From positions 1 to 61,274 of the forward strand of contig JAQTQJ010000011.1 in the NCBI GenBank assembly GCA_028712255.1: 61,274 bases of DNA, in the 5' to 3' direction. The notes under the pieces were generated by a model. It saw only the letters and a list, made by a program, of their open reading frames with translations. It was not told the origin of the DNA and made no database searches. The translations under genes and the position numbers were made by a program. Below, in pieces: positions 41,232-48,976 of this stretch. Positions within the stretch are counted from its first letter, which is position 1. Each line of letters starts with the position of its first letter. Origin of the DNA: Candidatus Omnitrophota bacterium (GTDB lineage Bacteria > Omnitrophota > Gorgyraeia > Gygaellales > Profunditerraquicolaceae).

Positions 41232-41261
41232 TTGACAAAAAAGGGCTTTTTTGTTTATAAT
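41232..41261 (+). promoter_or_regulatory. Consensus sigma70-type promoter (TTGACA-18-TATAAT)
   Basis: TTGACA at 41232-41237 and TATAAT at 41256-41261. The first ATG (41268) lies 7 nt downstream of the -10 box. Confidence 0.6.
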
Positions 41262-44851: not shown

Positions 44852-46054
44852 TCATGCGCAACAAGTATTATTTTTGCCTTTGTTTTTGGCTTGGTAGAGT
44901 GACTTATCGGAAGAAGTAATTAATTCTGCTGGAAGTTGTCCATCTTCGGGGAAAGTAGCAATCCCTAAGCTTGCCGTCAACATCTTATTGGGAAAAATTT
45001 CTTCATTCAGGAAAGGGGATTTTTGGATATCCATCCTTATGCGTTCAGCGATTAAAAAAGCCTCTTTTTTATCAGTACGGGGAAGGATGATAGTAAATTC
45101 TTCTCCTCCGTAACGGCAGACAAAATCCATTTTACGCGATTGATTACGTAAGAGGGTAGCTAGGTCTTTTAATATTTTATCTCCTGCCTGATGTCCAAGC
45201 GTATCATTATAGATTTTAAAATCATCTATATCTACCGTAATTAAGCTAAGTGGGCTTTTATTTGCTTTAGTCTTTTCAATCTCCGTGTGTAGTAAGTACT
45301 GAAAATACCCATGGTTCCAGAGGCCGGTCAAATAATCCGAATGCGCCCGTTCCGCGGTTAATTCAAAGAGTTGAGAGTTTTCGATTGCCAGGCCTGCTTG
45401 GTTGGCAAGCATAGTTAGCATGCGGATATCATCTTTGGTAATCGGGTCATTGGTAATAAAATTATCTGCCACGATTATTCCATTTACTCTGTCTTTTGCT
45501 TTTAGAGGAATGAGCACAAGTTCATCGCTTTCCAATATTTGGATTACCGGTGAATTTCGGTACTGATGGAGAGTTTGACCGGTTAAATGCAGAGGCATGC
45601 CTTCTAATACCGCCAAGGCGAGCGGATTTTCATTCTTATTAAGCATAGATACTTTTAAATCCCTAACCTGCCGGTTAAAACTTGATTCTAATACAACATT
45701 AGAATTTTTAAAGGCGCCGATTAGGTCATCAAGATCCATTTTTTCCTCTTCGATTTTTGTCCAGGCAATGTTAGCTTCTTCCCCATTTTCCGGGCCGATT
45801 CCCATCTTGCCTTCGATGATTTTTTCTTTCTCATTAACCAAGAAAAGCATGGCGCGGTTAAAACCTAAGCCTGTATGCGCGGTTACACCGGTAAGGATAA
45901 TATAGAGGATTTCATCTAGCTTTAGTGTGGTGCGCATAGCATTAGAAACCTCATAGAGTATCCCTAGCTCAGTTTTGGTACGTTCAAGTTCAACTTTGAG
46001 TTTATTTAACTCTTCCATAAGGCTAAATCTAGCATATTCTGTTCTGCTTGTCAA
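44852..46054 (-). CDS. Diguanylate cyclase with N-terminal coiled coil and GAF domain
   Basis: 400 aa. RYGGEEF active site with I-site RKMD five residues upstream. The only minus-strand gene in the window. Confidence 0.9.
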   Translation of the reverse strand: MTSRTEYARFSLMEELNKLKVELERTKTELGILYEVSNAMRTTLKLDEILYIILTGVTAHTGLGFNRAMLFLVNEKEKIIEGKMGIGPENGEEANIAWTKIEEEKMDLDDLIGAFKNSNVVLESSFNRQVRDLKVSMLNKNENPLALAVLEGMPLHLTGQTLHQYRNSPVIQILESDELVLIPLKAKDRVNGIIVADNFITNDPITKDDIRMLTMLANQAGLAIENSQLFELTAERAHSDYLTGLWNHGYFQYLLHTEIEKTKANKSPLSLITVDIDDFKIYNDTLGHQAGDKILKDLATLLRNQSRKMDFVCRYGGEEFTIILPRTDKKEAFLIAERIRMDIQKSPFLNEEIFPNKMLTASLGIATFPEDGQLPAELITSSDKSLYQAKNKGKNNTCCA

Positions 46055-46080: not shown

Positions 46081-46113
46081 CTATAAGTTTTAAGTCCTAA
46101 GTTGTAAGCTAAA
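46081..46113. repeat. Family B half-element; direct repeat of 48505-48537
   Basis: CTATAAGTTTTAAGTCCTAAGTTGTAAGCTAAA versus CTGTAAGTTTTAAGTCCTAAGCTGTAAGCTAAA: 33 nt with 2 mismatches. Confidence 0.85.
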
Positions 46114-46116
46114 AAT

Positions 46117-46156
46117 AAAGGGGACGGTTCTCTTAAAAAAGAGAAGCGTCCCCTTT
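46117..46156. repeat. Family A palindrome in a divergent intergenic region
   Basis: AAAGGGGACGGTTCTCTT-AAAAAA-GAGAAGCGTCCCCTTT. It lies upstream of both flanking genes, so it terminates neither. Confidence 0.8.
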
Positions 46157-46162
46157 ATTTCT

Positions 46163-46191
46163 TTGACAGAATAAAAGGTATGCATTATAAT
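46163..46191 (+). promoter_or_regulatory. Consensus sigma70-type promoter (TTGACA-17-TATAAT) of fibre-like gene 1
   Basis: TTGACA at 46163-46168 and TATAAT at 46186-46191. Shares TGCATTATAATATAA with the promoter at 47018. Confidence 0.7.
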
Positions 46192-46213
46192 ATAAATAAT
46201 ACTGGAGAAGCAT

Positions 46214-46930
46214 ATGGGTAGGTTATTAAAAAGTATTTTTCTAATTTTTTTTCTTCTGTTTTTTTGTTCAATTAGTGTTTTTGCAGCCGAAGAAATTACC
46301 ATTACTACTTACTATCCTTCGCCTTATGGTTCGTATAATCAATTACAGGCTAGTACTCTGGGAGTGGGAGATAATAATGGCAATGGAGTACTTGATAGTA
46401 GAGATGTCCCTAATCCAACTACGAATCCCGGAGAGGTTTGGATTAGGGGTAGGGTCGGTATTGGCGGTTCCTCAACGTTTATAGATATTTTTAAAGATCC
46501 AAAATTGACTCTTTGGGCTAATAATGGTGTTGATGGCGGCGGCGATCTGATTTTTAAAGATAATGGAAATGATGCTGGTGATATTGTTTGGATTAACTCA
46601 AGTAATACGCAGCTTGGCCGCATATGGACAAACACTGGTGGCCTTTCAGAGCTCTATTTTAGCTCCGGAGATATAACAGCTGATCTTACAATAAAAGCTA
46701 ATGGCGACGTTGGTATTGGGACGACGGACCCGAATAGTAAGTTCCAAGTAGTAGGAAATTATCTGCAAATACCAACAATGGCGAGTTTTCCTCCGGCTAG
46801 CGATTGCAATGAAGATTCGGAAGTAGGCCGAATGGTAGTATCCGGATACCCTTCGGAAGGGTTTTTATGGGTGTGCTTGCATGGTAGTGATAATATTATT
46901 CGTTGGGTTAAAGAAAACCATACATATTAG
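46214..46930 (+). CDS. Secreted fibre/adhesin-like protein, short paralogue (unknown family)
   Basis: 238 aa. Signal peptide (..SVFA/AEE), conserved EEITITTYYPSPYGSYNQL, Ca-binding-like GDNNGNGVLDSRD, G(R/D)VGIG repeats and a C-terminal two-Cys domain. Confidence 0.6.
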   Translation: MGRLLKSIFLIFFLLFFCSISVFAAEEITITTYYPSPYGSYNQLQASTLGVGDNNGNGVLDSRDVPNPTTNPGEVWIRGRVGIGGSSTFIDIFKDPKLTLWANNGVDGGGDLIFKDNGNDAGDIVWINSSNTQLGRIWTNTGGLSELYFSSGDITADLTIKANGDVGIGTTDPNSKFQVVGNYLQIPTMASFPPASDCNEDSEVGRMVVSGYPSEGFLWVCLHGSDNIIRWVKENHTY

Positions 46931-46965
46931 GGCTGCGTGAAGCAGATATTTTCATGTTAGATCTC

Positions 46966-47010
46966 CCCTTCTTTTTACGTCAATTGAACTAAAAAGAAGG
47001 GATTTTTATT
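46966..47010 (+). terminator. Intrinsic terminator of fibre-like gene 1
   Basis: CCCTTCTTTTT-loop-AAAAAGAAGGG followed by ATTTTTATTT. Homologous to the terminator at 48453. Confidence 0.7.
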
Positions 47011-47017
47011 TGTTGTT

Positions 47018-47046
47018 TTGACAGGCAAAGCGAGTGCATTTATAAT
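47018..47046 (+). promoter_or_regulatory. Consensus sigma70-type promoter (TTGACA-17-TATAAT) of fibre-like gene 2
   Basis: TTGACA at 47018-47023 and TATAAT at 47041-47046. Confidence 0.7.
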
Positions 47047-47067
47047 ATAATCAATCCTGGAGGCGAT

Positions 47068-48435
47068 ATGTTCAAATTATTTAAAAGTATTTTTCTAATT
47101 TCCTTTATTTTGTTTTTCTGTCTAACTTATCTTTTTGCTGTTGAAGAAATTACTATTACTACTTATTATCCTTCGCCTTACGGAAGCTACAATGAGTTAA
47201 CAGTAGCAAGTAGGCAGGCTATAGGAGATGTTAATGGAGACGGTGGAGTAGATAATTCTGACCTGGGAGTTGATGATTCTGGAAATCCCTTACCCGGAAG
47301 CCTGATAGTGGCAGGCAATGTCGGAATAGGGAAACGGTCACCATTTCGTAAATTGGACGTGGCAGGAGGAGCAAGCTTAGAGGATACTTTGTTCGTATAT
47401 GCTACCCAAAATGCGGATTATAACGTTGGCGCTCAAATTATGACAAACAGGAGCAGCGTAACCGGTAGTAATACTGCTTTGAAGCTTTATGCTGCCGGCG
47501 CAACGAATAACTATGCTTTAATTGTTCAAACTGGCGATGTCGGTATTGGGACGACGACTCCGCAAAGAACTTTAGATGTTAGTACAAATGGGCAAATTAC
47601 TTTTGGCAATAATGGTTATTCTTCTACCAGTTCGCCTGGAATGTTTTGGTATTCCGACAACGTAAACTATGGTATTTATAAATCTGCCGGTTCTTGGTCA
47701 AGTCCGAATTATCAGCAATTGACCTTAGCCTTCGCAACTGGTATTGTTATCGATGGCGGCAGTGTTTATGGTAAAAGCGGTACAGTTTTGCAGCCAAATG
47801 GCGGCAATGTCGGCATTGGGATGACGACACCGTCGACTAGTAAACTAGCAGTTGCAGGTTCAATTGCCGGAGGGGAAACATCAACGGGTTGGGTGCTAGG
47901 GAAAGGCGCTTGGGGTCCGGATGTATGGTTAAGACTTACAACAACACAGGCAGGTTCTACTTATCATAATTTTGCTGTCGGTCCTTTCTGGGCTAACGGT
48001 GCCACACGTTATGATTTAGCTGAAGTTACTCCGGTAAGAAAAGAGGATATATTAGAGGTTGGAGATGTAGTTTGTATAGATCAAGAAGCAAGGGTGAGGA
48101 TGAGACGCAGCCAGAAGGCTTATGATTTTCTTGTTGCCGGTATTGTTTCAGATCCGAATACTGCCTCTATGGTAATCGGAGGAGATACCCCTCCGGAAAA
48201 AATTAATTCCATTAATGATAAGAAACCTATTGCTTTAGTCGGACGGGTGCTGTGTAAAGTTAGTACAGAAAATGGACCGATTGAAATAGGAGATTTATTG
48301 GTTACTTCCAATAAACCCGGTTATGCCATGAAGGCAAATATAGATAAGCTAAAGCCGGGTATGGTATTGGGAAAAGCTATGGAATCTTTAAAAGATGGCG
48401 AAGGCAAAATTGTTGTTTGGGTAACATTGCAATAA
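47068..48435 (+). CDS. Secreted fibre/adhesin-like protein, long paralogue (unknown family)
   Basis: 455 aa. Signal peptide (..YLFA/VEE), identical EEITITTYYPSPYGSYN module, dockerin/EF-hand-like GDVNGDGGVDNSD, three G(N/D)VGIG(K/T/M)..P...L.V.G repeats, and a distinct ~150-aa C-terminal domain (YDLAEVTP...). Confidence 0.6.
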   Translation: MFKLFKSIFLISFILFFCLTYLFAVEEITITTYYPSPYGSYNELTVASRQAIGDVNGDGGVDNSDLGVDDSGNPLPGSLIVAGNVGIGKRSPFRKLDVAGGASLEDTLFVYATQNADYNVGAQIMTNRSSVTGSNTALKLYAAGATNNYALIVQTGDVGIGTTTPQRTLDVSTNGQITFGNNGYSSTSSPGMFWYSDNVNYGIYKSAGSWSSPNYQQLTLAFATGIVIDGGSVYGKSGTVLQPNGGNVGIGMTTPSTSKLAVAGSIAGGETSTGWVLGKGAWGPDVWLRLTTTQAGSTYHNFAVGPFWANGATRYDLAEVTPVRKEDILEVGDVVCIDQEARVRMRRSQKAYDFLVAGIVSDPNTASMVIGGDTPPEKINSINDKKPIALVGRVLCKVSTENGPIEIGDLLVTSNKPGYAMKANIDKLKPGMVLGKAMESLKDGEGKIVVWVTLQ

Positions 48436-48452
48436 TATTTTTTTAGTTAGAT

Positions 48453-48500
48453 TTCCCTCCTTTTTACGTCTATTGAAGGTAGAAAGGGGGAATTTTTGTT
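48453..48500 (+). terminator. Intrinsic terminator of fibre-like gene 2
   Basis: TTCCCTCCTTTTT-loop-AGAAAGGGGGAA followed by TTTTTGTTT. Confidence 0.65.
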
Positions 48501-48537
48501 TATAGCTGTAAGTTTTAAGTCCTAAGCTGTAAGCTAA
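48501..48537. repeat. Family B half-element (direct repeat of 46081; inverted partner of 48885-48933)
   Basis: TATAGCTGTAAGTTTTAAGTCCTAAGCTGTAAGCTAAA. Confidence 0.85.
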
Positions 48538-48544
48538 AGACAAT

Positions 48545-48910
48545 ATGGCAGGAACCTTCAAAGAAATAAAAGTTTGGCAGAAAGCTCATGAATTAGTCCT
48601 AGAAATATACAAAATTACCGAAGGCTTCCCAATTTCAGAAAGATACAATTTAACTTCTCAACTAAGAAGATCATGTGCCTCGGTTCCTACTAATATCGTT
48701 GAAGGCTACAAGAGAAGAAGCGATAAGGATTTTGCGCATTTTCTTAATATGGCCGATAGTTCTTTAGAGGAAACAAAATATCATCTGCTTTTGGCTCATG
48801 ATTTAACGTATTTAGATAAAATTAGTTATGAGCGCCTATTAATATTAGCCGATGAAATCGGCCGAATGCTTTATGGTTTTCAAAATAAGCTTAAAACTTA
48901 CAGCCTATAG
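48545..48910 (+). CDS. Four-helix-bundle protein (23S rRNA intervening-sequence protein / Avd-like family)
   Basis: 121 aa. KVWQKAHELVLEIYKIT..FP..ERYNLTSQLRRSCASVPTNIVEGY.R.S.KDFAHFLNMADSSLEET.YHL is family-typical. Confidence 0.85.
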   Translation: MAGTFKEIKVWQKAHELVLEIYKITEGFPISERYNLTSQLRRSCASVPTNIVEGYKRRSDKDFAHFLNMADSSLEETKYHLLLAHDLTYLDKISYERLLILADEIGRMLYGFQNKLKTYSL

Positions 48911-48947: not shown

Positions 48948-48976
48948 TTGACAGTATGAAGTGGGCAAGTTATAAT
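48948..48976 (+). promoter_or_regulatory. Consensus sigma70-type promoter (TTGACA-17-TATAAT) upstream of recA
   Basis: TTGACA at 48948-48953 and TATAAT at 48971-48976. Confidence 0.65.

Follow-up and report, generated by a model that had tools for sequence, protein, structure and literature searches.

Putative modular surface fibres with a constant N-terminal motif in Omnitrophota

In this report, we explore two tandem genes on a 61,274-nt stretch of DNA from a Candidatus Omnitrophota bacterium (contig JAQTQJ010000011.1 of assembly GCA_028712255.1; the whole stretch is called the window hereafter), encoding a 238-amino-acid (aa) fibre protein without a chaperone domain (gene A, 46214-46930) and a 455-aa fibre pro-protein (gene B, 47068-48435), both on the forward strand. 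Behind their signal peptides the two proteins carry the same short motif, TTYYPSPYGSY, and this N-terminus defines a family that is essentially restricted to the phylum, comprises at least about 1,200 clusters at 50% identity and is apparently undescribed in the literature and the curated domain libraries that we searched. The explanation that we favour, and consider fairly probable, is that its members are exported homotrimeric surface fibres, each docked through a constant N-terminal peptide and carrying an exchangeable tip.

A constant motif directly behind the signal peptide

Both proteins start with what reads as a Sec-type leader, with a basic n-region, a hydrophobic core of 15-17 residues and a V/L-F-A cleavage motif, and their sequences are thus consistent with export. 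In A, the predicted signal peptide MGRLLKSIFLIFFLLFFCSISVFA (residues 1-24; 46214-46285, forward strand, as are all features below unless stated otherwise) would be cut between VFA and AEE, with small residues occupying positions -3 and -1, and in B the corresponding residues 1-24 (47068-47139) would be cut between LFA and VEE. AlphaFold2 (AF2) models the leaders as helices, spanning residues 2-22 in A and 2-21 in B. A lipoprotein was considered and rejected, the signal-peptide Cys lying outside any lipobox and not being conserved.

The signal peptide is followed directly by EEITITTYYPSPYGSY in both proteins, the string behind it being EEITITTYYPSPYGSYN(Q/E)L, and the family-defining motif ITITTYYPSPYGSY occupies residues 28-41 of A (46295-46336) as well as of B (47149-47190). 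Across the family, the consensus (E)(E/D)(I/L)TITTYYPSPYGSY is found at about residue 30, after the signal peptide. The motif stands directly after the signal peptide in 181 of 240 retrieved homologues; a logo of these 181 sequences displays nearly invariant Y, Y, P, P, G and Y residues, at a position that is always about 25-35. Confidence for the motif in AF2 monomer models is low, with a predicted local distance difference test score (pLDDT) of 45-63. Searches with the motif in Pfam, NCBIfam, the PDB sequences and the literature returned nothing, in line with the original remark that the module could not be assigned to any described sorting or anchoring signal. Likewise, the whole A and B proteins gave nothing significant in Pfam, NCBIfam and PDB-sequence searches, and we found no description of this family in the literature on Omnitrophota tail fibres or on mosaic adhesive trimer (MAT) fibres in Omnitrophota.

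The two genes had been described as having near-identical signal peptides and a high nucleotide identity across about the first 45 codons. They do share the signal peptide and the motif, but the identity is moderate: within these 45 codons, 75.6% of nucleotides agree, with 24 codons unchanged, 9 that differ synonymously and 12 non-synonymously. The homology also reaches much further, to about 190 aa. Specifically, the 5' parts of the genes are 78% identical over 134 nt, and BLASTP aligns the proteins at 40% identity over 194 aa (E=9e-28), as far as the first GDVGIGTT repeat. This pattern suggests that the genes arose by an old duplication and have since been under purifying selection; the synonymous and non-synonymous differences in the shared 45 codons make a recent conversion of one gene by the other unlikely.

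A large family essentially confined to one phylum

Homology searches retrieved at least 1,290 relatives of B and 471 of A, bearing out the expectation that the pair belongs to a wider family, and nearly all of those with a named source come from metagenome-assembled genomes (MAGs) of Omnitrophota. When 1.84 billion representatives of 50%-identity clusters were searched with a profile built from the mature N-terminus, 7,593 matched at E<=1e-3, and the stricter cut-off of E<=1e-10 left 1,346. Among 113 new top matches of this profile, the motif was located at residues ~25-35 in 101, and giant proteins with GxVGIGT repeats make up the remainder. A search with a short N-terminal profile gave just short fragments and added little. 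Lengths of family proteins range from 135 to 670 aa. Giant proteins of this kind (P0303, P0313, P0325, P0335, P0336 and P0363) measure 1,500-3,600 aa, contain 12-27 GxVGIGT-type repeats and owe their match to the part of the N-terminal profile that covers the repeat; they carry no YYPSPYGSY motif.

The motif was also searched for directly, as a back-translated pattern, in one genome per prokaryotic species, where ~0.1 chance matches are expected. At least 120 loci were found, all but a few of those listed lying in Omnitrophota MAGs. Several genomes matched three to four times, which are lower bounds among the matches listed, and tandem pairs are common. The motif pattern had no match in 2.9 million viral contigs. 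The motif is a possible marker for the phylum.

Some of the listed loci were deposited under other names, as 'uncultured Planctomycetales/Planctomycetia' or, for one 1.9-kb contig, as 'Woesearchaeota'. These off-label loci are L001, L006, L013-L015, L021, L031-L033, L040, L043, L058, L061, L068, L069 and L073, together with L075, L077, L084, L099, L105, L116 and L118. In at least one such MAG (L001), recA adjoins the fibre gene, as it does in the Omnitrophota slot described below. Most likely, the off-label loci are either coarsely labelled Omnitrophota or contigs that were binned wrongly.

Phage-fibre modules behind the same N-terminus

The body of B contains three G(N/D)VGIG repeats (47314-47826; repeats starting at 47314, 47533 and 47803), and A has a single GDVGIGTT repeat (46703-46726). 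Both proteins match the PHROG tail-fibre family phrog_9942 (E=1.9e-8 for B and 1.4e-4 for A). When the AF2 model of A (pLDDT 68) was compared with the PDB by Foldseek, the best 11 matches were all MAT fibres of Bdellovibrio (Bd2439, Bd3182, Bd2133 and Bd1334). Together with matches of B in BFVD (see below), these results sustain the tail-fibre-like nature that had been proposed from the repeats, and the fibre identity of A and B is well supported.

To describe the architectures of the family, 103 complete open reading frames (ORFs) from the listed species-genome loci were examined. A Peptidase_S74 endosialidase-type chaperone ends 22 of the 103, a Gp34_trimer (T4 gp34 trimerisation) domain is present in three, and single members have a Collar, Gp10_C, ApeC or Peptidase_G2 domain; C1q and other domains are also found among homologous protein matches. 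Because S74, Gp34_trimer, Collar, Gp10_C, C1q and other modules vary behind the same N-terminus, the family is, judged by its domain composition, a mosaic of phage-fibre modules behind a single constant N-terminal part, and the motif is the only element common to all architectures.

Both A and B additionally contain a 12-residue loop shortly after the motif (DNNGNGVLDSRD, residues 53-64 of A, 46370-46405; DVNGDGGVDNSD, residues 54-65 of B, 47227-47262). The calcium-binding-like loop claimed originally holds to the extent that both copies fit the 12-residue EF-hand/dockerin pattern; a full dockerin domain is rejected, as each protein has a single loop in place of two calcium-binding loop-helix repeats and Pfam Dockerin_1 matches the B loop at 12.7 bits, below the cut-off of 22.9. 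Moreover, unlike type I dockerins (PF00404), the loop has no cohesin context. The loop of A lies in the best-predicted stretch of the N-terminal module (pLDDT 77-90), and D64 and P66 of A are invariant in alignment A4. Because only 13 of the 103 family members have an EF-hand-like loop, it is an accessory element outside the universal tag.

The end of A is a two-Cys mini-domain (CNEDSEVGRMVV...FLWVCLHG...RW; 46805-46906) that is likely the distal tip. It covers residues 198-231, follows the pattern C-x6-VGRMVV-x9-LWVC-x-HG-x5-RW and is modelled with low confidence. The domain libraries gave no match to it, and one clear homologue was found (P0122). A similar pattern, C...AGTMRY...(I/E)YC(D)G..W, closes P0171, P0209 and P0231. 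The two-Cys end may be a small tip module with a disulfide bond that recurs in the family.

The contrast between constant and variable parts is most direct where fibre genes occupy the same genomic position. In about 15 of the listed loci, the order is SMC, a divergent GGDEF gene, one to three fibre genes, recA, recX and alaS, which is also the arrangement in the window. Flanking proteins in this recA slot are 74-95% identical to those in the window (GGDEF 74-92%, recA 80-95%), and the N-terminal module of the fibres is 44-87% identical, whereas most of their distal parts cannot be aligned at all. A locus holds between one and three fibre genes, whose products measure 183 to 529 aa. This comparison is direct evidence, at the sequence level, that the N-terminal module is kept constant while distal parts are replaced, so that the combination of a constant module with exchangeable distal parts, first proposed from the A/B pair, holds family-wide in both the recA slot and the 103 ORF architectures. 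The closest relative among the fetched loci is an Omnitrophota MAG (L093), with 83% identity in SMC and 92% in GGDEF.

A predicted gp12-like chaperone at the end of B

The last ~150 aa of B had been taken for a distal binding domain and are better explained as a chaperone of the phage phi29 gp12 type. The C-terminal 140 aa (D316-Q455; 48013-48432) are probably a removable, intramolecular trimerisation chaperone of the Peptidase G2 type, with predicted self-cleavage between Y315 and D316, and not a distal binding domain. Residues 316-455 are modelled with a pLDDT of about 96. Foldseek against the PDB matched this domain to pre-mature phi29 gp12 (3suc, E=1.4e-5) and to the cleaved C-terminal fragment (3gqh, TMt 0.58, probability 1.00), the next fold matches being trimeric phage capsid decoration proteins. 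Matches in BFVD carry the names 'Preneck appendage protein' (TMt 0.64-0.69) and 'Peptidase G2 IMC autoproteolytic cleavage domain'.

In an hmmsearch of PDB sequences with a profile of 27 domain copies, which matched gp12 alone, an invariant D-x-A-E aligns on gp12 WSDFAEYF, where the cut falls between S691 and D692 and the Glu is E695, and the 3gqh chain starts at that Asp. Alignment by hhalign with gp12 residues 680-854 gave 86.9% probability in the same register, and in D-[LIVMF]-A-E neither the D nor the E varies among 97 copies of the domain or in alignment A3. When 27 domain copies were searched against Pfam, Peptidase_G2 (PF11962) was matched by four (best E=1.9e-4) and XM1_gp53, a capsid-decoration family whose fold is related, by nine. 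B itself gave no match to PF11962 at E<=1, and one of the 103 family ORFs does match, so that membership of B in Peptidase G2 is supported by fold and motif, not by a curated model. A G2-like domain closes 12 of the 103 family ORFs, in eight of them within four residues of the C-terminus.

In gp12, the C-terminal domain is an auto-chaperone that is removed by cleavage after folding (PMC3357383), and the last residue of mature gp12* is 691 (PMC6542822). Because the chaperone would be removed from B in the same way, the tip of the mature protein would be the segment just before residue 315. Cleavage of gp12 reportedly needs ATP, which is absent outside the cytoplasm.

Genomic setting and expression

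Each gene has its own expression signals. A perfect TTGACA-17-TATAAT promoter precedes A (46163-46191) and another precedes B (47018-47046); both share the string TGCATT(T)ATAATATAA, with a 1-nt indel between the copies. Ribosome-binding sites read from the sequence follow at 46204-46207 (GGAG, gene A) and 47059-47063 (GGAGG, gene B). Intrinsic terminators lie behind A (46966-47010; hairpin 46966-47001, then a U-run) and B (48453-48500; hairpin and U-run); they are homologous, with 76% identity over 42 nt, and fold at -16.2 kcal/mol (z = -3.1) and -19.9 kcal/mol (z = -3.5), respectively. Re-examination of the window confirmed the ORFs, these promoters with their shared string, both terminators, the three repeats of B and the GGDEF neighbour, as first noted.

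Four perfect promoters were counted in the 61-kb window, against 0.07 expected. The remaining two (TTGACA-N17/18-TATAAT) stand before SMC (41232-41261) and before recA (48948-48976). Perfect promoters are therefore genuine and not peculiar to the fibre cassette; given that the remaining pair belongs to SMC and recA, such promoters are a general mark of strongly expressed genes, and the source genome seems to use textbook sigma-70 promoters. Beyond the window, perfect sigma-70 promoters were found upstream of 13 of 118 family genes, compared with 16 of 680 other ORFs (Fisher p=7e-5), a rough enrichment, as ORFs inside operons, and some that may be spurious, were counted among the other ORFs. 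A perfect promoter precedes every recA-slot fibre gene examined. Strong, independent promoters and terminators are thus present as proposed for A and B, and perfect promoters recur before the genes of the orthologous slot in at least 10 other genomes.

The surroundings of the family were surveyed by clustering 890 ORFs from 120 listed loci. Recurrent neighbours are housekeeping genes only (SMC, GGDEF, recA, recX, alaS, argG/H and lysA), with pilin-like genes in a few loci. Besides the recA slot, a second slot of the order argG, argH, fibre, lysA is seen in about 19 listed Omnitrophota loci, often with two tandem fibre copies; examples are L017, L025, L032, L034, L037, L038, L041, L046, L098 and L109. 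In the window, the GAF-GGDEF diguanylate cyclase assigned by Pfam (44852-46054, reverse strand) is the divergent neighbour of A, and in about 15 genomes the recA-slot fibre gene invariably has a divergent GGDEF gene next to it. This adjacency may be mere conserved gene order, or it may reflect regulation of fibre expression by cyclic di-GMP.

The two-gene block is flanked by a 38-nt direct repeat, with one copy on either side (46081-46118 and 48506-48543). The copies are 89% identical, the first having four heptad-spaced TAAG units; the core reads TATAAGT TTTAAGT CCTAAGT TGTAAGC, with TAAG at 7-nt spacing. These two are the only copies in the window, against zero expected, and none of 121 fetched related loci contains one. 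The repeat may have been left behind by recombination, or it may be an array of sites to which a regulator binds. A hairpin with 22-bp arms and U-runs on both strands (46113-46160) sits just upstream of the A promoter, between it and the divergent GGDEF gene. Its arms are 95% complementary, and it folds at -32.3 kcal/mol on both strands (z about -8). In the closest relative, the intergenic region is far shorter and the hairpin is missing at the same place (L093:700-800). The hairpin looks like a lineage-specific insertion and is possibly a transcriptional insulator or a bidirectional terminator-like element.

Between B and recA, a gene for a 121-aa 23S rRNA-intervening-sequence protein (48545-48910; bAvd-like match, 49 bits) is present in the window, and its position is empty in most syntenic loci. 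As bAvd-like neighbours raise the question of a diversity-generating retroelement, a target of such an element was considered for the fibres and rejected, with no neighbouring reverse transcriptase and no template/variable repeat pair. Apart from the fibre motif, the 38-nt flanks are the sole repeats found in this region.

How the fibres may work, and alternative explanations

At the sequence level, each gene is a transcription unit of its own, with a consensus sigma-70 promoter and a terminator. In the explanation that we favour, removal of the signal peptide would expose a mature N-terminus (A/V)EEITITTYYPSPYGSY, as sequence rules for cleavage suggest. The chains would then trimerise from the C-terminal end, driven in B by the gp12/Peptidase-G2-type chaperone (residues 316-455), which, going by its fold, the profile alignment and the known gp12 site, would cut itself off between Y315 and D316 via D-x-A-E; A has no chaperone and would end in its small two-Cys tip. 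The unstructured N-terminal peptide would dock every fibre of the family to one conserved partner in the cell envelope, and in many members, including A and B, the adjoining calcium-type loop would be part of the docking element. The N-terminal constancy and distal variability seen in the sequences would reflect distal parts that are freely replaced, and the variable tips may bind host, prey or substrate surfaces, by analogy with MAT fibres and in keeping with the predatory or parasitic lifestyle inferred for many Omnitrophota. Docking is proposed because the motif is extremely conserved on a hypervariable background, is disordered in monomer models and has precedents (see below). The trimeric state, the anchoring role and host binding are all inferences.

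Several points weigh against this explanation. Trimerisation, surface location, cleavage and binding are predictions drawn from sequence, models and analogy; the signal peptides were assigned by reading the sequence; and a folded fibre would somehow have to cross the outer membrane. No gene for a docking partner, secretion or assembly recurs near the fibres among the 890 ORFs of the 120 listed loci. As for the chaperone, a 27-copy domain profile run against PDB sequences had gp12 as its sole match, at a marginal E=0.12, and B reaches no Pfam threshold. The MAT matches of A have E=8e-4 to 3e-2 and TM-scores of just 0.2-0.4, for a low-confidence monomer query. Finally, the AF2 monomer models are poor in the stalks of A and B and everywhere outside the chaperone domain of B, yielding no structure that could be used for the motif or the stalk, although poor monomer stalks are as expected if the modelled chains form intertwined trimers.

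A more specific form of docking can be imagined, in which TTYYPSPYGSY is a new N-terminal sorting or anchoring signal, read by dedicated envelope machinery or a base protein specific to Omnitrophota that would export a repertoire of interchangeable host-recognition fibres and display it. We advance this tentatively, giving it clearly less credence than the general docking explanation.

Alternatively, the motif could be mainly an outer-membrane export signal and not an anchor, with the fibres released or held in another way. Precedents for this are the N-terminal 22 residues of mature CsgA, which target the CsgG channel, and the Bacteroidota lipoprotein export signal. Every member has the motif where such a signal might stand, as the first part of its mature protein; the motif is unstructured in models and the sole element common to all architectures, and exported fibres need some route through the outer membrane. 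However, no secretion component co-occurs near the fibre genes, and the closest analogues attach by a conserved N-terminal part that lies proximally (MAT, PMC10769870; gp12, PMC6542822). We regard a primarily exporting motif as unlikely; the two roles are, moreover, mutually compatible.

The motif could also be purely structural, an N-terminal cap or registration sequence of the trimer with no external partner. A three-fold cap could be built from ITITTYY, which resembles a beta-strand, and the Pro/Tyr-rich turn behind it, and in some members (P0063 and P0072) the first fibre repeat comes directly after the motif. Nevertheless, near-invariance in more than 1,000 clusters with otherwise unrelated bodies is seen more typically in elements that all bind one partner, and folding of S74/G2 fibres nucleates at the C-terminus, making a mere cap improbable.

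Still less probable, to a degree that we would be surprised to see it hold, is a pilus-like polymer assembled by donor-strand exchange, in which ITITTYY inserts into the next subunit. Chaperone-usher pilins, TasA and archaeal threads are precedents, the strand right after the signal peptide has alternating hydrophobic residues, and the promoters are very strong. On the other hand, the bodies are tail-fibre/MAT-like, many with trimer-specific S74 or G2 chaperones, the sizes of 135-670 aa and the C-terminal ends are extremely heterogeneous, unlike those of pilins, and no usher- or chaperone-like neighbour was found near the fibre genes.

Lastly, that the genes are prophage or tailocin remnants, encoding true phage tail fibres, is suggested by the PHROG and BFVD tail-fibre matches, the phage-type chaperone domains and the adjacent bAvd-like/23S rRNA-intervening-sequence gene, and is largely refuted by Sec signal peptides, a housekeeping neighbourhood syntenic over about 15 genomes, the lack of other phage genes and of a reverse transcriptase nearby, and zero matches in the 2.9 million viral contigs, on which grounds we rejected it.

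Comparison with known systems

The closest system in function and architecture is the MAT family of Bdellovibrio (Bd2133, Bd2439, Bd3182 and Bd1334). In MAT fibres, the signal peptide precedes a conserved N-terminal domain that is 'presumed to bind a surface element'; behind it come a trimeric stalk, formed as a meandering beta-helix, and variable tips, some of which include S74 (PMC10769870). Similarly, the Omnitrophota proteins have a predicted signal peptide, an N-terminal part that is constant among paralogues, a tail-fibre-like body that would form the stalk and highly variable, chimeric tips; both systems have several paralogues per genome, with an S74 chaperone-protease in a subset (here 22/103), and both occur in bacteria that are, or in Omnitrophota would be, predatory or host-dependent. 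They differ in the N-terminal element, a ~130-aa beta-rich domain in MAT and a ~20-aa linear motif here (~60 aa with the calcium-type loop, as in the A-type subfamily), a contrast drawn by description and not by alignment. Furthermore, full-length MAT proteins measure ~1,000 aa (Bd2133 1,031 aa) against 135-670 aa in Omnitrophota, some Omnitrophota members use a G2/gp12-type chaperone instead of S74, and the Omnitrophota fibres belong to a different phylum and are known from sequence alone.

With phi29 gp12 (PF11962; 3suc, 3gqh), B shares the fold of residues 316-455, the D-x-A-E register and the position of the domain C-terminal to a fibre, whereas sequence similarity is marginal and B is a cellular, Sec-exported protein by prediction and not a virion protein. 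Likeness to S74 fibres (PF13884) lies in the fusion of the same family N-terminus to S74 and in the GxVGIGTxxP repeats, which are typical of 'tail fiber domain-containing proteins' (NCBI names of P0126, P0131 and P0177), although neither A nor B has an S74 domain.

For the motif itself, viral docking peptides offer precedents. The N-terminal 32 residues of gp12 are extended peptides that dock on the phage collar (PMC6542822). The Omnitrophota motif resembles gp12 1-32, as well as the FNPVYPY peptide of adenovirus fibre, in being a short, conserved, Tyr/Pro-rich N-terminal peptide, by analogy and with no sequence homology. In adenovirus, FNPVYPY binds the penton base. Taken together, the family appears to consist of phage-derived mosaic surface fibres of host-dependent bacteria, with an apparently undescribed N-terminal tag.

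Implications for Omnitrophota biology

Omnitrophota are abundant, mostly ultra-small and uncultured bacteria that are thought to be predators or parasites (PMC10066038). The fibre family is a concrete candidate for their host-recognition layer, parallel to MAT but with a different attachment element, because it is large, phylum-restricted and multi-copy, and because its phage-like fibres join an invariant tag to tips that are replaced rapidly. As to how Omnitrophota recognise and attach to hosts, attention has until now gone mainly to Tad and type IV pili and to giant ORFs.

The invariant 14-residue motif offers a handle on this system, as a search pattern for MAGs, as an epitope for antibodies or for imaging coupled to fluorescence in situ hybridisation, and as a peptide (AEEITITTYYPSPYGSYNQL) usable as bait for the envelope partner. 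In addition, with a G2-type chaperone predicted in a cellular protein that is exported, this phage device gains a wider range of known uses. If the motif does act as a dedicated sorting or anchoring signal, the TTYYPSPYGSY system would be a cellular counterpart of the phage baseplate adaptor, or an N-terminal analogue of C-terminal sorting tags, one example of which is the C-terminal domain of the type IX secretion system, and finding the partner of the motif would expose the host-attachment apparatus of uncultured nanobacteria.

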